A DNA stretch of 55,811 bases, from the NCBI GenBank assembly GCA_018303285.1, contig JAGVYL010000015.1, positions 1-55,811 of the forward strand, written 5' to 3'. The notes under the pieces were generated by a model. The model was not told the origin of the DNA and made no database searches. It saw nothing but the letters and a program-made list of their open reading frames with translations. Each line of letters begins with the position of its first letter. Positions within the stretch are counted from its first letter, which is position 1. Of this stretch, positions 46,637 to 55,811 are shown one piece after another. Made by a program: the position numbers and the translations under genes. Source of the stretch: Candidatus Woesearchaeota archaeon (GTDB taxonomy: Archaea; Nanobdellota; Nanobdellia; Woesearchaeales; GW2011-AR9).

Positions 46637-47833
46637 TTATTCTAAATATTTTCTCACCATTTTAGCTATAGCTAAAGCGGAGGTTAGCCCCGGAGAACAA
46701 ATTCCTACTAAGTTAATCATCTTACTATGGATCTCGTCCGGAGCGATATGAAAATCTTGGCTATTAGCAAGAACCGCTTGTATCCCTGTTTGATGTAATT
46801 GTAAATCATTAAGTACAATCTCTGGAAAATATGATTTTATTCTGTTTAGAAATGCAGACGGAAGCGCGAGATCAGAACCAAAATCATCTTTTCTAATGTC
46901 CTCCCCTCTTTTCCGGTTTAAAGGACCAACAGTAACTTCTTTGCCTAATGGAACTGAATGATTGTCCATTGCAAACTCTTCTCCCCCCATGATAGAAAAT
47001 GTTGGAGTTAAATGCACACCCACCGTGAGATGTTTTGATCCATCCGGTTTTTGATACGAAGTTGGTGCAGGATAAATATTCCTAAAAATTTTAAGATTAC
47101 TTCGGGATTGATAAAATTTTGCAGTCTCACCCCGAACCGGAAAGATTTTAAGAGGGAAATCAGGATTGACCATTCTAGCAATTTCATCACTATAAAGACC
47201 GGCTGCGTTGATAATGTATTTAGTAGAAAAATCGTACTCTCCAGATCCGATTGCTTTTGCTTTTACAATAAATTCTTCAGTTTGTGGCGTTATTTTAATA
47301 ACTTCCGTTCCAAGCAAAAAATATTCTTTTAAGTCAGCAAGATCTCGTAATTTGCGAACTACTGAACTTGGATCTACTATCCCCGATGTTGGAACCCATA
47401 ACGCTGAATGAGCCTTAACATTTGGTTCTAAGTTTCTTGCTTGTTCGCCATTAATCTTTTTTACATCCGGAACTAAATTTTCTCTTGAGCGGAATAAAAG
47501 ATTATCTAAAGATTTATCTTCTTCGGCGTTTGTAGCAACAATAAGCTTACCGGTTTGCTTTGAGGGAAGATTATGATCTTTACAAAATTGGTATAACAAT
47601 CTATTTCCAGTAATACATAAATGAGCTTTTAAGGAACTATGATTTTGGTTATAATACACCCCCGCATGGATTACTCCTGAGTTTCTTGCAGTTTGATTTT
47701 CTCCAGGAAAGCTTTTATTTTTTTCTAAAAGACATATGGTCTTGGAGTCTATTATCTGCGATAGTTCATATGCCACCGCATTTCCGATTATACCTCCCCC
47801 CACAATAGTTGCATAACGGTCTGTCATGAACAT
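46637..47833 (-). CDS. FAD-dependent oxidoreductase, L-2-hydroxyglutarate oxidase/dehydrogenase-like
   Basis: ATIVGGGIIGNAVAYEL, NSGVIHAGVYY, NAAGLYSDEIA, PVRGE: an LhgO/DAO-family pattern. Confidence 0.75.
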   Translation of the reverse strand: MFMTDRYATIVGGGIIGNAVAYELSQIIDSKTICLLEKNKSFPGENQTARNSGVIHAGVYYNQNHSSLKAHLCITGNRLLYQFCKDHNLPSKQTGKLIVATNAEEDKSLDNLLFRSRENLVPDVKKINGEQARNLEPNVKAHSALWVPTSGIVDPSSVVRKLRDLADLKEYFLLGTEVIKITPQTEEFIVKAKAIGSGEYDFSTKYIINAAGLYSDEIARMVNPDFPLKIFPVRGETAKFYQSRSNLKIFRNIYPAPTSYQKPDGSKHLTVGVHLTPTFSIMGGEEFAMDNHSVPLGKEVTVGPLNRKRGEDIRKDDFGSDLALPSAFLNRIKSYFPEIVLNDLQLHQTGIQAVLANSQDFHIAPDEIHSKMINLVGICSPGLTSALAIAKMVRKYLE

Positions 47834-47938
47834 GCATCTTCATAGTTTAATTATAAAGATTTTGTAAGCGCCAACTATACTTTAATCAGCATCGTAGAAG
47901 AAAGTTTTAGATGATGAACAAATTGAGCATAAAACGAT

Positions 47939-48037
47939 GTTATGCTTCCCTGCCTCGAATTTTCCTTCGACCGTAGTCAGAGCTGGAAAATTCAGAGTCG
48001 CAGGGTCGAGGCGTAGCTGAGAAGTATTTTGGTGGGC
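47939..48037. repeat. Structured intergenic repeat, copy A (GTTATGC head, bulged 58-nt hairpin at 47948-48005, GAGAAGTATTTTGG tail)
   Basis: Pairs: CCCTGC/GCAGGG, 2-nt bulge TC, CTC/GAG, 1-nt bulge A, GAATTTTCC/GGAAAATTC, 19-nt loop. Same geometry as copy B with different helix sequences. Confidence 0.7.
48023..48037. repeat. Left arm of the 15-bp inverted repeat bracketing the Fic gene
   Basis: AGTATTTTGGTGGGC. The reverse complement of 49113-49127 is AATATTTTGGTGGGC (14/15 identical). Confidence 0.7.
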
Positions 48038-48082
48038 TAAGTTGTTCCGTTATACGACAAAGAGGCAGGTGTACGTGCACAG

Positions 48083-49030
48083 TTATGTTTCGGTTTGTTT
48101 TTCTTTGTGCCCGTAACTTCTAATTTGATCAATAATCAAGTCTAGCATTTCAGCAATATAGTTTTTGTTATCGTTCTTATCAGCTTTCTCTATAGCTTGA
48201 TAGTATTGTTCTCTTTTTTCAAATGGGATAAAAAACATGGGATAACTCTTCTTCATTAAAACAAAATTCATTACTGCTCTGGCAGTTCTACCATTTCCAT
48301 CTTCAAAAGGATGAATCCAAGCAATACGAGCATGGATTATGGTAGCTAACTCAAAAGGATGAAGCTTATTTTTATTGGTATTGTACCATTTGAACAGGTT
48401 GAGTAAGTGCCTTTTAACTTCCTCGTGTTTCGGCGGAATATGATTAGAACCATGAATTTGCACATCAAAGAACCGAACTCGTCCGCCATAAACTACGCCC
48501 GTGTTTTTGGTTAAGATACCATTTAATTTTTCTAAAAAATGCTTGTTTAAATCTCCTTTGTAAGATTTAAGATATTCCAAGCATTCTCTTCCGTTAATAG
48601 CTTCGTTGTAATCTTCTGCTCTCACGCCAGAAGGAATAACTTTATCTTTAAGAATTAAAGCAGTTTGTCTGAGGGTGAGTCTATTTCCCTCGATAGCATT
48701 GGTATGATAGGTAAAGCGGATAACAAAGTCTTCGTTTAATTTTTCTCTAACACTTTTAGGGATTTGCTTGAGCCACTCTTTGTAGCTTTCTTTCAAATCC
48801 TGCAAAGTCTCTGCATCGTGCTCGGAAAGATAAGCATATTCTGATCTTTTGATGAATTGTTGCGATTCTGCTTCTATTTTCTTAGTGGATTGAGCTAGTT
48901 CTTCTTTAGACGGTTGTTTGTCTCCGAAGTAAATCCGCACTTTTTTCCATTTATTCAAGCCTAAGCGGATATTTTTAGTGAGATAGAAGTATTCTTTCTT
49001 ATTACGTTTGATAATTTCTACGTAGGCCAT
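48083..49030 (-). CDS. Fic-domain protein (AMPylase type) with an N-terminal inhibitory motif
   Basis: Canonical HPFEDGNGRTARAVMNF (HxFx[DE]GNGRxxR) and an upstream TNAIEGN matching the (S/T)xxxE(G/N) auto-inhibition helix. Confidence 0.9.
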   Translation of the reverse strand: MAYVEIIKRNKKEYFYLTKNIRLGLNKWKKVRIYFGDKQPSKEELAQSTKKIEAESQQFIKRSEYAYLSEHDAETLQDLKESYKEWLKQIPKSVREKLNEDFVIRFTYHTNAIEGNRLTLRQTALILKDKVIPSGVRAEDYNEAINGRECLEYLKSYKGDLNKHFLEKLNGILTKNTGVVYGGRVRFFDVQIHGSNHIPPKHEEVKRHLLNLFKWYNTNKNKLHPFELATIIHARIAWIHPFEDGNGRTARAVMNFVLMKKSYPMFFIPFEKREQYYQAIEKADKNDNKNYIAEMLDLIIDQIRSYGHKEKQTET

Positions 49031-49112
49031 ATACTAATGTATGGGCACGTGATATTTAAATGTTTCGGTTAAATGTGGACATACAGATGATCATCCGTTT
49101 TTAGTTCATCGT

Positions 49113-49127
49113 GCCCACCAAAATATT
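49113..49127. repeat. Right arm of the 15-bp inverted repeat bracketing the Fic gene
   Basis: GCCCACCAAAATATT. See 48023-48037. Confidence 0.7.
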
Positions 49128-49139
49128 AAGCTTAATGGT

Positions 49140-49260
49140 GTTATGTTCTCGGCTCCTCGTGAGCCCCCTCGAAAACACGAAAGTGTTTTCAGAGCTGGGG
49201 CGATAGAGATGAGACGACCGAGCATTTTTTCCCGCAGGAAAAAAGCGGAGGAGTTTTGGG
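49140..49260. repeat. Structured intergenic repeat, copy B (GTTATGT head, 39-nt hairpin at 49163-49201, 48-nt module shared with copy C)
   Basis: Pairs: GCCCC/GGGGC, bulge CT, CTC/GAG, bulge A, GAAAACAC/GTGTTTTC, GAAA loop. Then GATGAGACGACCGAGCATTTTTTCCCGCAGGAAAAAAGCGGAGGAGTT (49208-49255). Confidence 0.7.
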
Positions 49261-49304
49261 TTTTTCACATAAAGTTTATAAGGATTCTAAATTTTCTGTT
49301 TGGA

Positions 49305-49688
49305 ATGATAGCGGGGATTAACAATAACGCAGATATAAACTCCTACTTGGAAGCAGAGGAGATAGAGAGGCTTCCACGAGAAACTATCGAAGGAGTTCTT
49401 ATAGATATACGAAAACCGAAGAGGCAAGGAACTTTGACTATATCTGTTGGAGGAGAAGGTGGCATTAAGGTAGATGATAAAGATTATTGGGTGACAGAAG
49501 AAGGTTTTCGTGTAGTAGCTATTATGACACCAAGACATTATCAAGAACTCCGAGAAAGAGCAATGATTGGAGTAAGAATACCTGATAAAGGTAAGTTTCA
49601 TGTATATGACCTATCAAGGCTCGATACTTGGAGAGCAACTGAAGTAAAAAATTTAGAATCCTATCGTGATAATAAACAGATTGCCTGA
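49305..49688 (+). CDS. Hypothetical protein (127 aa)
   Basis: Start moved to ATG 49305 because the track ORF N-terminus (49143-49304) is translated repeat B. TTTATAA at ~49275-49281 lies ~25 nt upstream. No family recognised. Confidence 0.5.
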   Translation: MIAGINNNADINSYLEAEEIERLPRETIEGVLIDIRKPKRQGTLTISVGGEGGIKVDDKDYWVTEEGFRVVAIMTPRHYQELRERAMIGVRIPDKGKFHVYDLSRLDTWRATEVKNLESYRDNKQIA

Positions 49689-49726
49689 AAGGTTCTGGTG
49701 AAAAACCCAAAATTGAACATAATTAT

Positions 49727-49845
49727 GTTATATTCTTTTCTCCCCGAGGCGAAGGCGAGGCAAATTTGGGACAAATTTACACTCCTGCCGAGACTCGGGA
49801 TGAGAAAACCGAGCATTTTTTCCGCAGAAAAAAGCGGATGAGTTG
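49727..49845. repeat. Structured intergenic repeat, copy C (GTTATAT head, divergent hairpin, 46-nt module shared with copy B)
   Basis: CCCGAG/CTCGGG outer helix (49743-49748/49794-49799). GATGAGAAAACCGAGCATTTTTTCCGCAGAAAAAAGCGGATGAGTT (49799-49844) differs from copy B by 3 substitutions and two 1-nt indels. Confidence 0.65.
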
Positions 49846-49916
49846 AGTTCTCGCTTTATCAATACTGCGAAGCAGACTAGAATTCGTTAGGGAAGGGGGG
49901 GGCGTCCGTTTTTTTG

Positions 49917-49937
49917 CTTCTTTTTCCTAAAAAGAAG
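49917..49937 (-). terminator. Hairpin downstream of the helicase gene stop
   Basis: CTTCTTTTT/AAAAAGAAG 9-bp stem with a 3-nt loop, flanked by A/T runs. It lies 31 nt beyond the minus-strand stop at 49968. Confidence 0.4.
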
Positions 49938-49967
49938 AATAGGAAGGGGCGTCGTTAAAAAGTAGTT

Positions 49968-52900
49968 TCATCTCTTTAATTTTATTTTGTCTTTTTCTTC
50001 ATCTATTAATTTATTCTTTATTAAATGATTAATTGCTTCCTCAACTTTATCTCTTATCTTATTTCCTGTTCGGTTATTATTATAAATTCCTCTTGCTATA
50101 TCTGAGGTTATAGCTTTTTTTGTTGCGCTGAAAGAATTCTTTAAAATATCAATTATTGCCCCAGCTAATTCTTCTTTAGGGATTAAAATAAATGACCTGT
50201 CACTTTCTTCTGAAAGTTTTACTTCGGAAAATATATTTATAGGTTCAAGAGAAACAGTGTTTTGGTAAATATTGATTCCCTTATCTTTCTTTAATTCCTT
50301 TAATATTTCTTCAAATAAATGTTCTATTCTTCGTCCTAACTTTTGAATACCCATTGAAGACAATACTCTTTTGTATAATAATTCTTTTTCAATCGGACTC
50401 TCTATTTCTAGAACTTGCATTATTTTTCTTTTAATGACAGAAACTGCCGAATAATTGTTAAGGCTTCCGTAACTGTCAAATTCTAAATCCATATCTGATT
50501 TTGAAAGCTCTGCTATTTTGTATTTTTTATATTTATCCTTGAGTTCAATTTCTTTAAAGTCTTCTTTTTCATCAATTTTTGATAAACAATTATTCTGTTT
50601 GGGTTCTGAAATACCTTTTGATTTCAAGATATTTTTAACTTTCTCCCTTACCTTTTCGATTTCGTATTCCTTGTTATTTAACCAATCATCAGACCAAATT
50701 CTGATTATATTCCAACCGAGATTCTCTAATACAACTTGCCTGATTTTGTCCCTATCTCTTGCAAATCTTGAAGAATGGTATTGTGAGCCATCACATTCAA
50801 CACCCAAAATATATTCTCCGGGTTTTTTTGGATGTTTTATGGCTAAATCTACCCTGTACCCAGAACAACCAATCTGACAGCTTACATCAAATCCTTCTTT
50901 TATTAATTCCTCATAAACAGCTTCTTCAAAAGAAGAATCAAATTGTAGCCCCTCGGTTTTCTGTAAGTACTTAGTAAAATCTTTATTTTTTGCAAAATCT
51001 AAATAATATTTTAAGTACCTCACGCCTTCTGCATTAATTTTATCTTCGTCTAACTCGTCAGGAAGCATCGACGAAATAACAACTGTTTTAAATCTTGAAC
51101 GAGTTATTGATACATTAAGTCTTTTGTAGCCTCCTTCTTTATTCAATGGACCAAAATTATAACTAAATTTACCTGAGGAGTCTTTGCCATAACCTACACT
51201 TAGAATAATAATGTCTCTTTCGTCACCTTGCACGGTTTCAAGATTTTTAACAAATACTTCCTCGTTATTAACATCGATTGACTCTTCTATAGGTATTCCT
51301 GCTATTTGAAATTCCTCTCTAATTGCATTTTCTTGAGCCATACTAAAAGCAATAATTCCAAATGATTTTTTTGGAAACTTCTTTTTTAAATCCCTATAAA
51401 TTTTAACAATCTCCCTCGCTTCAATCCTATTTTTCCTGGATTTTCCTCTGTCATAGACCCCTTGTTTAATATATACAAAATCCAGTCCGCTGTTATCATT
51501 TTCCTTAGGATTTGGGAAGGTTATTAAACGGTTTTCATAAAAGAACCTATTGGAAAAAGATATAAGTGTTTCATTATTACTTCTATAATGCCAATCCAGT
51601 GATTTGGTTCTGAATTTAGTTATTGATTCACTTAAGAAACTCTCTAAATCTTCAATTTCTTCTTCACTTTCATCATCTTGGCTTAAGAAGAATGATGTAG
51701 GTGGGAGTTGTTGTGTATCTCCCATTATTATAGCCTGTTTTGCTCTTATAAGACAAGGAACAGCGTCTTCGGGCATAATTTGAGAGGCTTCATCAAATAT
51801 GACTATATCAAAATTTATATTTTTTGGATTAATATATTGACTAACCGTCAGAGGACTCATCATAAAACAAGGTTTCAAAGCAAAGGCTAAATCTGGTATT
51901 TGTTCTAATAAATCCCTAATAGGTTTTAATCTTCTTTTCTTTTCATTTTCTCGTTTGAGAATGGAAACCTCATTAGAACCCATACTTGAGTAATTGTCTT
52001 TTGGTTGTCTATCTTCAACAGACTCCATAACTTTATACCTAAAAATATCTCTAACTTTTATATCATCATCTCTGAATTTTTCAACAAGACTTTTTGGAGA
52101 AAACTTATTTGATTTTTTGAGTATTTCATCTAAAATCTGGAGATAGTAGGACTTAAGAAAAACCTTGCTGAATTCACTTCTGACAGCATTATCGAAATAT
52201 TTTTTTATAAACTCCTTTACTTCTTCATCTAGCTTTATGAATTCTTCTTTAAATGCAAGAACCTCTTTAAGATTCTTAAATTGGTTATTCAGTTTCTCCA
52301 AAACAGTTAGAACATCTTGAATGTTCTCTAAACTGGTTAATTGTTTAACCTCAAAGAACCCTTCTGTTTCATTTAAAGAATAATAAAAATCTCTAAATAG
52401 TCCTTTCTGATTACAATTAGATAGTGACTGAATTATAGCATAATTTTTACTTTTTGAAATTTTATTTGATATTTCAAAGAGAGGTATCAAGTCTTTACAA
52501 TATTTATCTAATCTGGAGATATTACTTAGATTGCTATAATCACCGATAATCTCTGATTTTTTCTTGTTCTTTGAGACAATTTCATTAAGTTTTCTATTTA
52601 TTTTTTCATATTTGGCTTTCTCATCAAAAAGAGATATCCATTCATTATATCCTATTTTTATTTTTGCATATTTATCCAAATTAGCCTTATTGGTTTTATA
52701 TTCCTGATTAAAAAGTCTAACGAAAAACGAGGTTTCTCTGAATATCTTTTCAACTTGATGTGTGTTTAAATCGTCAATAAAAGAATCTTTTACTCTCTTT
52801 GTCATATCTTCCCGCATCTCTTTTAGCTCCAAAAGAACAGATAGTAACTCTTTTATCAGAGAATTATATTCTTCAAAATCTTTTGAAAGCAAATATGAGA

Positions 52901-54485
52901 ATTCGTGGTTAAATTTGAAAGCAATAATTTTATCGTTTAATTCGTTTAGTAAGTTTAACTCGGCAATAAAGTTTATCTCTATCCTAGTTTCTATTTTTAG
53001 TTTATCTATAAAACAAATTATTTTTTTAGTATTCTGATCAAAATTCTTTAGATTAGAACTGAATCTGTTAATAGCCAAAGAAGTATTCTTGTCTTTCTGA
53101 TAATTGAAATATATGTTTTCGTTTGGATTTCCTAACACAATAAAAGAGGAATTAAACCTCTCTAGCTTGTCAAATAATATTGAAAACTCTTTTTTGTTTA
53201 GAGATATTGACCTTTTTAATGGGAAATCTACAATCTCGTTTTTTGATAGTTTCGCCAATTCTCCTCTAACATCATAAACAGATAACTCCCAAGGAGAGTG
53301 TTTTTCGCATAAAAATTGATAGAATTCATTGATATCCTTTTGAGATTTTAAATAAGATGAAACATCCTCTCGTTTTATCATTGAAGGTATAACTGGAGAA
53401 GTTTGAAGTTCTTTCATAAATTGTTTTATAACTTCTCTTTTGTTTCCTTTGTAATTATGTAAATTTAGGCAGTATCTTCCTAATCCTACTTCATCTAGTC
53501 TTTTTTGGACTACATTCAAAGCAGCCATTTTTTGGCTCACAAAAAGAATCTTTTTATTCTTTTCAATAAGAGCTGAGATAATATTTACAATTGTTTGACT
53601 TTTACCAGTTCCCGGAGGTCCTTGTAATACAAAAGTAACTCCTGCTTTTGCTAACTCTATTGCTCTTTTTTGGGAAGAATCTGCTGGAAGAACATCTACG
53701 CTTGTAGTATCATCAAATTCCTCTCTCTGCAATTCAGCAATTTCATCCTGTAAAGCCTCTCTATCTCCAACATACGCTTTCACTAAAGGGCTATCTTTAA
53801 CCAGTTTTTCATTAAAACTCAAATCTTCATACATGATAAATTTTTGATACGAAAAAATATCCATGTAGACATCTTCGGTAATTTTCCAATCCTTCATTCC
53901 TTCTATTTGCTTCTTAAGGTAAGACAGATATTCCGAAGGGGTTTGATTCTCAAATTCATTTATTTCTATGCCGAAATCGTGAGAAAGCTTCTCTATTAAT
54001 GCTGGATTTAATTGCATTTCTCCAGAATTAGAATCAATCTCAAATTTATGAGTTTCTTTACTAACAGTAGGTAGCCTGCTAATTTCCAAAGGCCAAAGAA
54101 AAATAGGGGCTTCTAAAAATAACTCGGAGTTGTCTGCATCTTTATATTTCAAAATTCCTAAAGATAAAAAACAAGTGCTAATTCCTAACTCTTGAAAGTT
54201 TTCTTTTGCCTTTAAATAAAGGGCATATAATTTTTTCTCAACAGTTTCCTCGTCTTCAGAACATAACCACTGCCTGTCTTTAGCATTATCCTTTTTCTCT
54301 TTTAGGATAAATATGTTTTGCTCATTTTCCAAATCTTCAATTACTTTAATGAAAGAGGGAGATATTATTTTTAGTGATTTTGATTTTGTAAATCTATAAC
54401 GCACAAGATTATTTCTTTTAGATAAATCTATAAGTTTCTTTTTCCAATAGTCAATTTTTTTGTTAATTATCTGTTTAGTATCCAT
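49968..54485 (-). CDS. 1505-aa SF1 (Upf1/Dna2-like) helicase with a DUF4011-type N-terminus, a Vsr/DUF559-like endonuclease domain and a DUF3320-like tail
   Basis: KLIDLSKRNNLVRYRF (DUF4011-like). Helicase motifs GPPGTGKSQ, IFDEASQ, MGDTQQLPPT, TVQGDERD, LNVSITRSR. Nuclease module YRVDLAI...LGVECDGSQYHSS..ARDRDKIRQVVLENLGWNIIRIWSDDW. Confidence 0.9.
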   Translation of the reverse strand: MDTKQIINKKIDYWKKKLIDLSKRNNLVRYRFTKSKSLKIISPSFIKVIEDLENEQNIFILKEKKDNAKDRQWLCSEDEETVEKKLYALYLKAKENFQELGISTCFLSLGILKYKDADNSELFLEAPIFLWPLEISRLPTVSKETHKFEIDSNSGEMQLNPALIEKLSHDFGIEINEFENQTPSEYLSYLKKQIEGMKDWKITEDVYMDIFSYQKFIMYEDLSFNEKLVKDSPLVKAYVGDREALQDEIAELQREEFDDTTSVDVLPADSSQKRAIELAKAGVTFVLQGPPGTGKSQTIVNIISALIEKNKKILFVSQKMAALNVVQKRLDEVGLGRYCLNLHNYKGNKREVIKQFMKELQTSPVIPSMIKREDVSSYLKSQKDINEFYQFLCEKHSPWELSVYDVRGELAKLSKNEIVDFPLKRSISLNKKEFSILFDKLERFNSSFIVLGNPNENIYFNYQKDKNTSLAINRFSSNLKNFDQNTKKIICFIDKLKIETRIEINFIAELNLLNELNDKIIAFKFNHEFSYLLSKDFEEYNSLIKELLSVLLELKEMREDMTKRVKDSFIDDLNTHQVEKIFRETSFFVRLFNQEYKTNKANLDKYAKIKIGYNEWISLFDEKAKYEKINRKLNEIVSKNKKKSEIIGDYSNLSNISRLDKYCKDLIPLFEISNKISKSKNYAIIQSLSNCNQKGLFRDFYYSLNETEGFFEVKQLTSLENIQDVLTVLEKLNNQFKNLKEVLAFKEEFIKLDEEVKEFIKKYFDNAVRSEFSKVFLKSYYLQILDEILKKSNKFSPKSLVEKFRDDDIKVRDIFRYKVMESVEDRQPKDNYSSMGSNEVSILKRENEKKRRLKPIRDLLEQIPDLAFALKPCFMMSPLTVSQYINPKNINFDIVIFDEASQIMPEDAVPCLIRAKQAIIMGDTQQLPPTSFFLSQDDESEEEIEDLESFLSESITKFRTKSLDWHYRSNNETLISFSNRFFYENRLITFPNPKENDNSGLDFVYIKQGVYDRGKSRKNRIEAREIVKIYRDLKKKFPKKSFGIIAFSMAQENAIREEFQIAGIPIEESIDVNNEEVFVKNLETVQGDERDIIILSVGYGKDSSGKFSYNFGPLNKEGGYKRLNVSITRSRFKTVVISSMLPDELDEDKINAEGVRYLKYYLDFAKNKDFTKYLQKTEGLQFDSSFEEAVYEELIKEGFDVSCQIGCSGYRVDLAIKHPKKPGEYILGVECDGSQYHSSRFARDRDKIRQVVLENLGWNIIRIWSDDWLNNKEYEIEKVREKVKNILKSKGISEPKQNNCLSKIDEKEDFKEIELKDKYKKYKIAELSKSDMDLEFDSYGSLNNYSAVSVIKRKIMQVLEIESPIEKELLYKRVLSSMGIQKLGRRIEHLFEEILKELKKDKGINIYQNTVSLEPINIFSEVKLSEESDRSFILIPKEELAGAIIDILKNSFSATKKAITSDIARGIYNNNRTGNKIRDKVEEAINHLIKNKLIDEEKDKIKLKR

Positions 54486-54486
54486 C

Positions 54487-55488
54487 TTAAATCAAATCAT
54501 CCAATCCTTTTTTATCTATTAGTTGTACTCCATTTTTACTTGCTAATTCAAATGCAGATTTTGTAAATGTTCCAGTAGTTATGACCATTGCCTTGTCGCA
54601 GTCATAAAATTTCATAGAAGCGACGACTTCTTGAACCGCTTTATTTCCGACGCTACCCACATATTTTTTTATTTGAACAGCAATAAGAACACCTTTTTTA
54701 TCTTCTAAGATTATGTCTGCTCCTTGATCGCCTGTTGCTTTTGTAATTTTAAGATTATATCCTTTTTTCTTAAAGCAAGAAGCAATAAATTTCTCGAATT
54801 CCAGTCCAGACATGGCTTGAATTTCTTTTTTTGAGGAGCTTTTTTCAGTTCGTAAAAGCTTTTCTTCAAAATTATCTAATTCTCTTTTTTGTTCTATTTC
54901 ATTTATTTTTTTTATTATCTCATCAACAGTAAGTTTTATCCCAGTTTTTTTAATAAGTTCATCAATAATATGCTCTATATACTCTTTTGCAGTTTTTTCG
55001 TAATCAAATATCAATCTATCCAAAATCAAAGATGCTAGTTCATCTAAATTATATTCTTTTTCTTTGACATAATTAACTAATTCATCAACTTTTGTGACAA
55101 ACTCCAAATTTTGAACAAGTAAATAAAACTCTTCTTCAGAGAATAATAGTCCCATCTTATTTTCAAGTAACCTTTTAAAAATAGGCAAATTATCAACAGA
55201 GGATTCATCATTATATCTTTTAGCATATTTTAAGAATAAATCGATAATTTCATCATTAATAGAATTATTTATGGATTTGAATTTTTCATATCTTTCTCTT
55301 ATTGAGATAGGATTATCAGCATTTTGCCATATCCATTTCTCAAAGTTATTATAAATACCTTTTTCTTGTTTATAGCCTTCGATTTCTGTTCTTAATTTTT
55401 TAAGGGCCTTTAATTCTTCCGTAGAAATCTCCTTTCTTCCTAATTCTCGCATTCTTCGAGCCCATTTATTTTCTTTTTTGGTATCCAT
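54487..55488 (-). CDS. Fusion of an unknown ~220-aa helical domain with an Mrr-type (PD-(D/E)xK) restriction-endonuclease core
   Basis: C-terminus GLEFEKFIASCFKKKGYNLKITKATGDQGADIILEDKKGVLIAVQIKKY...AVQEVVASMKFYDCDKAMVITTGTFT (Mrr_cat pattern D...QxK). The stop is 1 nt from the helicase start. Confidence 0.8.
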   Translation of the reverse strand: MDTKKENKWARRMRELGRKEISTEELKALKKLRTEIEGYKQEKGIYNNFEKWIWQNADNPISIRERYEKFKSINNSINDEIIDLFLKYAKRYNDESSVDNLPIFKRLLENKMGLLFSEEEFYLLVQNLEFVTKVDELVNYVKEKEYNLDELASLILDRLIFDYEKTAKEYIEHIIDELIKKTGIKLTVDEIIKKINEIEQKRELDNFEEKLLRTEKSSSKKEIQAMSGLEFEKFIASCFKKKGYNLKITKATGDQGADIILEDKKGVLIAVQIKKYVGSVGNKAVQEVVASMKFYDCDKAMVITTGTFTKSAFELASKNGVQLIDKKGLDDLI

Positions 55489-55492
55489 TCAT

Positions 55493-55811
55493 TTATCTCC
55501 TCTTGTTTACTTCCATCTTGAATTTATCCCTTATCTCATTAACTTTCTTCTCATTTAATTTAATAATAATTGACTTACATTTTACTAAAAACTCAGGAGC
55601 ATTCTTTACCATTTTATTATATTGCTCATCTGGAACAGTCCTGTCAATGTAATATTGAGAATCTATTCTTGCCTTCAGAGAATCTTCTGTGAAATCAAGA
55701 TCTTCTTCGCTGAAAAATTCTCTAAGAAATCTCTTTGCGAACGCTATTGTGCAAGAATGAATCTCACATTTTATGCCTATTTTTGTCAAAACTGAGTAAA
55801 GCGAAAAATAG
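55493..55811 (-). CDS. HEPN-domain protein, partial (frame stays open to the right edge)
   Basis: ...KIGIKCEIHSCTIAFAKRFLREFF...LKARIDSQYYIDRTVPDEQYNKMVKNAPEFLVKCKSII fits the COG2250-type HEPN pattern (H...F...; R....Y....t.ee......a.ef). The track start is TTG with no in-frame stop upstream inside the window. Confidence 0.55.
   Translation of the reverse strand, partial: YFSLYSVLTKIGIKCEIHSCTIAFAKRFLREFFSEEDLDFTEDSLKARIDSQYYIDRTVPDEQYNKMVKNAPEFLVKCKSIIIKLNEKKVNEIRDKFKMEVNKRR

Follow-up and report, generated by a model that had tools for sequence, protein, structure and literature searches.

Integrons carry a tyrosine recombinase gene at one end of a cassette array, beside a distinct terminal site. 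Their cassettes are short, mostly hold one gene, and run in a single direction, with toxin-antitoxin, defense, GNAT, and ORFan genes as cargo. Their junctions are conserved in structure over sequence, with extrahelical bases on one arm and the crossover next to a GTTA motif. All of these traits recur, the crossover position as the likely one, at a locus that we analyzed in 55,811 nucleotides (nt) from a Candidatus Woesearchaeota archaeon (GenBank assembly GCA_018303285.1, contig JAGVYL010000015.1). This whole stretch is referred to as the window, and near its end three structured intergenic elements, A, B, and C, separate individual genes. Our analysis indicates that A, B, and C are probably junction units of an integron-like chromosomal gene-cassette array that is built on an archaeal Xer/dif system.

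Archaeal integrons and clusters of attC sites lacking integron integrases (CALINs) were described by Ghaly et al. 2022 (PMC9668308). For archaeal Xer recombination, the Pyrococcus abyssi dif site has been characterized experimentally as ATTGGATATAA TCGGCC TTATATCTAAA (Cortez et al. 2010, PMC2958812). Such a site is normally present in a single copy, in the replication terminus. The recombinase gene may be adjacent to the site, as xerS adjoins difSL. Integrative mobile elements exploiting Xer (IMEX), among them CTX-phi, TLC-phi, and the gonococcal island, carry no recombinase of their own and stack one after another at the site; CTX-phi relies on a folded single strand. The pdif modules of Acinetobacter plasmids consist of one or a few genes, often for toxin-antitoxin or resistance functions, with Xer-type borders, and are found in varied contexts. 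The cer and psi sites combine a Xer core with about 180 bp of accessory sequence that provides duplex sites for PepA, ArgR, or ArcA. Below, coordinates are window positions and related loci or contigs have L numbers, L001 being the window's own contig in reverse orientation.

A family of junction units in unidirectional cassette arrays

The original prediction, made from the DNA letters alone, described three elements beginning with GTTATRY and took them for a family of structured elements marking cassette-like gene boundaries. The motif is present at 47939 (GTTATGC), 49140 (GTTATGT), and 49727 (GTTATAT). These GTTAT positions stand, but a conserved ATTGA.CATAA arm places the true start of each unit 17 nt earlier: 47922 for A, 49125 for B, and 49712 for C. 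The elements do lie as separators between a DAO/lhgO-like gene, a Fic gene, a 127-amino-acid (aa) open reading frame (ORF127), and a gene for a 1505-aa helicase-nuclease, as assigned with Pfam and PADLOC.

More than 65 distinct relatives of these elements were found in metagenome-assembled genomes (MAGs) of DPANN-type archaea and in groundwater metagenomes. As the original prediction proposed, members sit at cassette borders; the arrays that they form are unidirectional. When the module shared by B and C was scanned against one genome per species, true relatives were recovered from Woesearchaeota, Nanoarchaeota, and Pacearchaeota MAGs, one Methanosarcinales MAG, and two bins of the candidate phyla radiation (CPR). 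The metagenome scan yielded 56 loci from groundwater and lake samples. Units were then located by nhmmer with a hidden Markov model (HMM) from 25 copies, and in every array all units are on one strand. Array sizes include 11 units in 12 kb (L091) and 9 units in 6.3 kb (L121), with 4 to 5 units each in L085, L103, L087, L123, L076, L075, and L108. Over 48 intervals, units are a median of 623 nt apart, mostly with a single small ORF between them. The longest ORF shares the strand of the units in 24 intervals and is on the opposite strand in 19; 5 intervals are empty. Cargo includes PIN toxins, proteins of the GNAT, SET, TrmB, and HTH kinds, an operon for an ABC transporter, and numerous ORFans, and the defense-type cargo also includes Fic, a helicase-nuclease plus Mrr, HEPN/MNT, and restriction-modification genes. 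The cargo is integron-like. The units are a widespread family of junction elements, conserved in structure, that form unidirectional cassette arrays.

Short, multicopy, noncoding elements with internal palindromes could also be selfish repeats resembling miniature inverted-repeat transposable elements (MITEs), or could stem from a recent local duplication of one promoter or untranslated region, in either case with no role in gene mobility. The 47-nt module that the original prediction had noted in B and C is 92 to 94% identical between them, with two 1-nt indels, and a type-2 unit in L045 (see below) adjoins an ORF judged by eye to be DDE transposase-like. However, copies are clustered in same-strand arrays with one gene between them instead of being dispersed, and sequence and HMM scans found no further copies in the other 47 kb of the window. 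Terminal inverted repeats common to the family and target duplications are absent; the inverted repeats are cassette specific and belong to the cargo. The P1 hairpins of A, B, and C (described below) are unrelated in sequence while having the same geometry, so the elements are not a recent duplication. A MITE-like repeat or a local duplication can hardly account for the elements, and the MITE alternative of the original prediction is unsupported.

The scans also touched other DNA. Viral contigs gave no matches in a strict motif scan and only unrelated T6/A6 hairpins in a loose one. Matches of the genome scan in Treponema, Chitinophagaceae, and Saccharibacteria were rejected as unrelated repeat families or terminators. 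Two unrelated, multicopy families of bacterial palindromic repeats share a CGAGCATTTTTT..AAAAAAGCG hairpin tip, by chance or convergence: one in Chitinophagaceae (six sites in four loci, L043, L046, L056, and L066) and one in Treponema UBA4267 (five sites in four loci, L040, L051, L061, and L062).

Structure of the junction unit

Each unit starts with a core of consensus ATTGAATATAA-N5-TTATATTC. The spacer is 5 nt long in 60 of 65 distinct units and 6 nt long in 4; only unit A of the window has a 7-nt spacer. While the right arm is conserved over just 8 nt, the consensus left arm agrees with its P. abyssi dif counterpart in 10 of 11 positions (single units, 8.6 of 11 on average). This dif-like, duplex-type core, which lies just upstream of GTTAT and was beyond the account given in the original prediction, is the likely site of crossover.

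The core is followed by P1, an unbranched hairpin of 60 to 80 nt. Its outer helix covaries: 6 of 7 pairs had changed on both sides (41 cells), and none of 500 shuffles reached the observed score. With the more than 65 relatives, this puts the observation well beyond chance. When anchors were set from sequence only, by HMM columns, all seven positions paired in 30 of the 65 units, compared with 7.4% of non-cognate pairs. Across the family, bulges are strongly one-sided: in 62 P1 hairpins, 199 pure bulges are on the 3' arm and 8 on the 5' arm. They consist of A, CT, AT, or T and follow a nested motif, helix-(A)-CTC/GAG-(YT)-helix. In A and B, the geometry is as first described: an outer helix, a 2-nt bulge on the 3' side, CTC/GAG, a single bulged A, and an inner helix. 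Unit C shares this geometry, except that its 3-bp helix is flipped and reads GAG/CUC; the CT bulge of 2 nt is still there. By RNA folding, the A, B, and C hairpins are more stable than dinucleotide shuffles (z, -2.7 to -4.0). Mismatches in the outer part of P1 are G:T in 11 cases and A:C in 2, and this excess points to the + strand as the folding strand.

A second hairpin, P2, lies between (G)NCGAGC and G(A/G)AGAGT. P2 stems, too, covary and are unrelated in sequence (for example, GCAAAGC/GCTTTGC, GCAATTTC/GAAATTGC, GCACGAC/GTTGTGC, and T6CC/GGA6). Folded as single-stranded DNA (ssDNA), each unit has three adjacent hairpins, the core palindrome, P1, and P2 (z, -4.2 to -6.3). Other readings of these parts were tried and set aside. 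K-turn, C/D-box, H/ACA, bulge-helix-bulge, and hammerhead motifs, compared by eye, do not fit P1 or the GATGAGA block. The TATA-like GTTATATA was ruled out as a promoter; many units carry GTTAGNNN, and transcription would start within P1.

Complementarity of cassette ends

The third helix, P3, involves the cassette itself. The 10 to 17 nt after ..AGT are complementary to the 10 to 17 nt before the ATTGAA of the next unit, and the sequence is specific to each cassette. A perfect complement of at least 10 nt joins 35 of 46 cognate ends and only 18 of 2070 non-cognate pairs. These counts point to cassette-specific pairing of the two cassette ends. In the window, P3 takes the form of perfect inverted repeats that bracket each gene and abut the elements, a feature overlooked in the original prediction. 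P3 can comprise several helices, as it does on the window contig in the ORF127, D-E, and C-C2 cassettes. In L095, an empty P3 is a short hairpin with no cargo (TCTCCC, 31 nt, GGGAGA), and in L074 and L083 identical P3 arms surround different genes. Inversion of genes between their flanking repeats was considered and rejected, as one orientation was found in eight assemblies and the repeats are a general feature of cassette ends.

Covarying helices could also belong to RNA. The units might be small RNAs, or they might serve as signals for processing, termination, or insulation between genes expressed independently, with the inverted repeats as processing stems; archaeal rRNA genes are bracketed by long processing stems. 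Changes compatible with G:U on the + strand only (11 G:T versus 2 A:C), good z-scores in RNA folding, and T-runs after several units would fit such elements. However, no Rfam family matched either strand of the window or of 10 related loci: at the gathering score and at permissive E-values nothing relevant was found, with only weak matches at E of about 1. No consistent archaeal promoter lies upstream of the units. Cargo is encoded on either strand and has promoters of its own within P3, so a single transcript would seldom include the two P3 arms. RNA elements would also leave unexplained the dif-like core, the breakpoints in it, and the link to xerA (described below). We consider it unlikely that the units are RNA elements, and the terminator alternative is unsupported. 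Any function of the hairpins, which may fold as ssDNA or as RNA, is inferred.

A terminal dif-like site and a XerA-type recombinase gene at the array end

The array continues beyond the window on the same contig. In window orientation, and with cassette cargo in parentheses, the order is DAO gene, A, (Fic), B, (ORF127), C, (helicase-nuclease, Mrr, HEPN, MNT), C2, (74 aa), D, (324 aa, 138 aa), E, (MNT, HEPN, AsnC, 132 aa), a terminal 11-6-11 dif-like site, a xerA-type gene, and hef. Hence, the contig carries six same-strand cores (A, B, C, C2, D, and E) plus the terminal site, and the cores point toward the recombinase gene. Unit C2 reads GCGAGAACTCA ATTGAATATAA TCGCTG TTAGTTTC, and its left flank pairs with TGAGTTCTCGC at 49844-49854. 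The terminal site, ATTAAACATAA CTCCAT ATATATTGAAT, has both arms and a 6-nt spacer and is not followed by P1. If the elements were recombination sites, a recombinase gene could be sought elsewhere on the contig; the 279-aa gene encodes such a tyrosine recombinase, with the terminal site 220 nt upstream and hef next to it.

With the NCBIfam XerA model NF040815 (cutoff, 220 bits), the recombinase of the window contig scored 216.9 bits, compared with 232.6 for L044, 216.6 for L064, and 214.2 for L116. Homologues are 44 to 50% identical in L044, L095, L064, L116, and L075 and 34% identical in L089. The recombinase gene is downstream of the units and in the same direction in L044, L095, L064, L075, and L089. 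In L001, L116, L075, L095, and L089, a dif-like site can be read clearly some 200 nt upstream of this gene; the upstream candidates in L044 and L064 are doubtful.

Two contigs encode the same Mrr protein as L001. On the recombinase side of the helicase-Mrr-HEPN-MNT cassette, L005 has a minimal unit (P1 CTTTTTC/GAAAAAG) and, within about 600 nt, a tyrosine recombinase gene fragment, and L003 runs into housekeeping-like genes.

The units could instead be attC sites of a canonical integron or CALIN recombined by IntI, as reported in Nanoarchaeota and Methanosarcinales. The arrays are unidirectional, with short cassettes and typical integron cargo; TAAC...GTTA motifs resemble R''/R', the extrahelical bases are one-sided, VchIntIA is the closest solved structure to the recombinase, and archaeal integrons are known in the same phyla (PMC9668308). 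The layout of the units is different. An attC site has an R'' (RYYYAAC)/R' (GTTRRRY) pair at the ends of an imperfect palindrome of 50 to 150 nt, with inner L''/L' boxes, so that R''/R' closes the hairpin. Here, TAAC and GTTA are 3 nt apart on one side of the hairpin, both 5' of P1, in a compact dif-like palindrome with a 5-nt gap; the 3' foot of P1, (G)NCGAGC, is not complementary to the GTTA side; and no L boxes were seen in the unit sequences read or in the folds. Integrons have one hairpin per junction, compared with three here (P1, P2, and P3), with the cargo inside the P3 loop.

The recombinase also departs from IntI. With the integron-integrase model TIGR02249 it scored 208 bits, below the cutoff of 265, and it reaches the range of the XerA model, slightly under that model's cutoff. 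It aligns end to end with XerA structures but with VchIntIA only in two pieces, because it lacks the IntI-specific insertion (about 21 residues versus about 62 in IntI4). Unlike integron cassettes, these carry genes in both orientations (24 versus 19) with their own promoters. Neither the accessions of the array MAGs nor the motifs are in the supplement of PMC9668308. A canonical integron is therefore very unlikely. Of the resemblance to attC sites noted in the original prediction, the one-sided bulges hold, while the attC layout does not and the enzyme is XerA-type, not IntI.

A second type of unit (type 2) was seen in L045, L050, L084, L089, L090, L098, L120, L123, and L127, in a noncoding block of about 200 to 480 nt that is 88 to 97% identical between contigs with different flanking genes. 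Within the block are another kind of site (..TAA CGTATG CGATTTAACGAAG), several hairpins of the TTTTCAGAG type, a unit that begins with GTTAGCCGACCC, and a conserved P3 arm. Its conserved 3' block is a left P3 arm, and in L089 the right arm abuts the terminal site; the type-2 block looks like a resident last platform unit beside that site. The cargo next to type-2 units includes a HindVP restriction enzyme, Schlafen/AlbA_2, Fic, AbiEii, HsdM, and Dcm. Type-2 units were also found in the CPR-labeled bins L054/L070 and L072 (Staskawiczbacteria and Nomurabacteria). Since L054 is 100% identical to a Pacearchaeota contig, at least one CPR label is probably a binning error.

Divergence of related strains inside the core

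Comparison of near-identical contigs located the points at which strains diverge. L085 and L121 share 99.7% identity for 2968 nt, ending at ATTGAATATAACCGTGTTA, beyond which their P1 hairpins and cargo differ. For L075 and L123, identity is 99.98% for 4095 nt, as far as ATTGTATATAAC; past this breakpoint, one contig enters the terminal site and xerA and the other a further cassette. Because these two independent pairs both diverge exactly inside the core, the crossover is placed in the core. Strains with an identical Mrr protein likewise differ in their recombinase-side cassettes. Breakpoints inside the elements, taken with a tyrosine recombinase gene at the array end, support the original suggestion that the elements may be recombination sites.

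Breakpoints of this kind would also be expected if the units were portable homology blocks, with cassettes shuffled by homologous recombination between conserved units and the proximity of xerA and dif incidental (for example, at a terminus hotspot). Each unit has 30 to 50 nt of near-identical sequence (the core and TCGAGC..GAGAAGT), and the breakpoints in the core coincide with the highest identity between units. The same P3 arms occur with different genes, and a unit-cargo junction is shared between contigs. Homology alone would leave unexplained the covariation of stems amid sequence divergence, the strictly one-sided bulges and cassette-specific terminal complementarity, the single orientation within each array, and the fixed terminal 11-6-11 site about 200 nt upstream of xerA at five clear loci. 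We judge this explanation improbable, to about the same degree as RNA elements.

L083 (Ga0233425_10187162) is a contig of 1029 nt in which nt 1 to 127 equal nt 903 to 1029, giving a circular assembly path of 902 nt. It carries two units; of its two cassettes, one is empty and the other has an ORF of roughly 150 aa.

Units and cargo in the window

The array begins beyond the DAO/lhgO-type oxidoreductase gene (46637-47833, - strand; Pfam/PADLOC). The core of unit A, the first site of the array on the DAO side (47922..47950, + strand), has the left arm ATTGAGCATAA, the 7-nt spacer AACGATG, and the right arm TTATGCTTCCC. Its P1 (47948..48005, +) reads CCCTGC / CTC / GAATTTTCC ... GGAAAATTC-A-GAG-TC-GCAGGG, with both bulges on the 3' arm. 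Unit A is a copy without the P2 hairpin: alignment showed that the flanks of P2 are kept in its tail, TCGAG-GCGTA-GCTGAGAAGT (48006..48025, +), and that the hairpin is gone. The P3 left arm of the Fic cassette, TATTTTGGTGGGC (48025-48037), pairs with the right arm, GCCCACCAAAATA (49113-49125), which abuts the core of unit B. The cargo of this first cassette (48083..49030, -) is a Fic/DOC protein (SoFic / PDC-S04-like) with its own TATA-like box and a leaderless start.

Unit B has the core ATTAAGCTTAA TGGTG TTATGTTCTCG (49125..49151, +). In its P1 (49143..49225, +), outer helices formed by ATGTTCTCGG/CTC with GAG/CCGAGCAT enclose an inner part, 49163-49201, which is the hairpin recognized originally. 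P2 of unit B (49218..49254, +) is T6CC/GGA6, closed by CC..GG and GC..GC, with the conserved end GCGGAGGAGT. The P3 left arm of the ORF127 cassette (49254..49295) consists of an outer repeat, TTTTGGGTTTTTCAC (49254-49268), and an inner repeat, AGGATTCTAAATTTT (49281-49295). Their partners in the right arm (49648..49712) are the outer GTGAAAAACCCAAAA (49698-49712), which abuts the core of unit C, and the inner repeat at 49648-49662, in the last codons of the ORF.

The cargo of this second cassette is ORF127 (49305..49688, +), for which Pfam and PADLOC gave no family match. The protein is an ORFan with one distant homologue among 5.8 billion sequences, outside any array; with that single homologue not in an array, ORF127 offers no evidence on cassette mobility. 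Public gene callers predict a 181-aa product from 49143, inside element B (49143-49688). A TATA-like box, AAGTTTATAAGG (49270-49281), about 25 nt before the ATG at 49305, instead fits a leaderless 127-aa gene. The inner P3 helix overlaps both the interval from promoter to ATG and the last codons of the ORF, so the coding sequence is also constrained by pairing.

Unit C consists of the core ATTGAACATAA TTATG TTATATTCTTT (49712..49738, +), P1 with the flipped GAG/CUC helix and the 2-nt CT bulge (49736..49808, +), and P2 plus GCGGATGAGT (49809..49843, +). Conserved sequence past C reaches about 49954 in relatives and is the arm of the cassette that follows C. This multi-block P3 left arm (49844..49954) comprises TGAGTTCTCGC; ATCAATACTGCGAAGCAGAC; GGGAAGGGGGGGGCGTCCG; a T/A-rich hairpin; and GGAAGGGGCGTCG. 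The right arm, ..GCGAGAACTCA, immediately precedes the next core, beyond the window end (L001, about 8776). The cargo of this third cassette (49968..55811, -) runs past the window end and includes the Hhe/PDC-S37 helicase-nuclease of 1505 aa (49968-54485, -), an Mrr nuclease gene (54487-55488, -), and a HEPN gene that is cut by the window end, with an MNT gene next on the same contig.

The motif GCGAAGC was seen at hairpin tips, in CTGCGAAGCAG after unit C (49858-49877) and in TTTTTTGCGAAGCAAAAAA within P2 of L092, L094, L096, and L124. GCGAAGC forms an unusually stable DNA mini-hairpin, and its recurrence at tips may hint at DNA folding. The remaining 47 kb of the window is ordinary archaeal chromosome, with genes such as those for aIF5B, Trm1, and AspRS, and no tRNA or tmRNA gene was found in the window.

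A possible mechanism and the points against it

A dif-like core lies where strains diverge, and a XerA-type gene with a full dif-like site lies at the array end. If the array works as a Xer/dif cassette system, the XerA-type recombinase would exchange strands in the core spacer. As in integrons and IMEX, cassettes would then move as excised circles, each inserting at another core or at the terminal dif-like site. P1, P2, and P3 would act on the single-stranded + strand, marking strand and orientation as the extrahelical bases of attC do. P3 would loop out the cargo and thereby join successive cores whatever the cargo length. Since cassettes have their own promoters and carry genes in either orientation, a common promoter is unnecessary. 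The 5-nt spacers of cassettes and the 6-nt spacer of the terminal site recall, as speculation, exchange of a single strand pair finished by replication. In attC x attI recombination and in CTX-phi integration, one strand pair is exchanged and replication completes the reaction.

Several observations weigh against this interpretation. The covariation background of the outer P1 helix is high, with 32% of non-cognate combinations reaching 6 of 7 pairs, because the helix is pyrimidine rich on one side. Cassette cores, with a 5-nt spacer and an 8-nt right arm, depart from the characterized 11-6-11 dif. Some exchange took place outside the core, as common P3 arms with different cargo and one unit-cargo junction shared between contigs indicate; homologous recombination between conserved parts would account for it. 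The xerA gene could be a housekeeping gene beside the chromosomal dif, with another enzyme moving the cassettes. P3 pairing over as much as 7 kb needs a fully single-stranded cassette. The 902-nt path in L083, the sole hint of a circle, may be an excised circle, but a tandem duplication is equally possible.

None of the rival explanations jointly accounts for the core, the breakpoints, the geometry of xerA, the one-sided bulges, and the P3 complementarity, and we rate the system as falling within recombinase-linked gene-cassette arrays. More tentatively, and with the odds somewhat against it, the locus may be an archaeal counterpart of the integron: a XerA/dif platform that captures and accumulates single-gene cassettes, largely of defense and toxin genes, by recombination guided by folded ssDNA. 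Its junctions would join a dif-like crossover site to attC-like hairpins with one-sided bulges, and the loop of a third, cassette-specific helix would contain the cargo.

Comparison with other Xer-associated systems

The array shares features with each of the known Xer systems and departs from each. As in archaeal Xer/dif (PMC2958812), the core is dif-like in format, its consensus left arm is nearly identical to that of P. abyssi dif, and the terminal site follows the 11-6-11 pattern. A XerA-type gene adjoins that site, an arrangement like that of xerS and difSL. In contrast with dif, present in one copy, the window contig has six cores plus the terminal site, and cassette cores have 5-nt spacers. 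As in IMEX, elements are stacked in tandem at a site, and by their sequence the cassettes would qualify as such elements, lying between direct dif-like cores beside a terminal site and encoding no recombinase. Arrays of 11 or more tiny one-gene modules are outside the described IMEX pattern, however, as are conserved bulged hairpins, self-complementary module ends, and the absence of phage or plasmid functions.

Like pdif modules, the array cassettes are discrete modules bounded by Xer-type sites. pdif sites alternate in inverted orientation and lack structured hairpins and pairing of ends, whereas all sites here are direct; pdif modules reside on bacterial plasmids, and these cassettes reside on archaeal chromosomes. 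With cer and psi, the units share a one-sided accessory sequence of 100 to 200 nt after the Xer core, which could impose directionality and favor deletion between direct repeats. The accessory sequences of cer and psi show no hairpin covariation, whereas the accessory part of these units consists of base pairing and one-sided bulges.

No description of such arrays was found in the literature searched, which included PMC9668308 and PMC8371274; its coverage is incomplete, and an earlier account is possible. Archaeal IMEX go unmentioned in a 2021 review of archaeal tyrosine recombinases (PMC8371274).

Implications

Integrons are the standard case of structure-specific gene capture, and their origin from Xer-like recombinases has been assumed but never observed. 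Here, the logic of an integron array sits directly on a dif-like site plus a XerA-type enzyme, in ultra-small groundwater archaea and with a richer folded junction. If this reading is true, the system could be a living analogue of the step by which IntI and attC evolved from Xer/dif. If functional, it would provide a testable intermediate for integron evolution and a new structure-guided recombination site for engineering, and its signature, a core plus a one-sided bulged hairpin, could be used to find hotspots of accessory genes in DPANN archaea. It would also account for how the defense islands of these archaea are assembled and exchanged.

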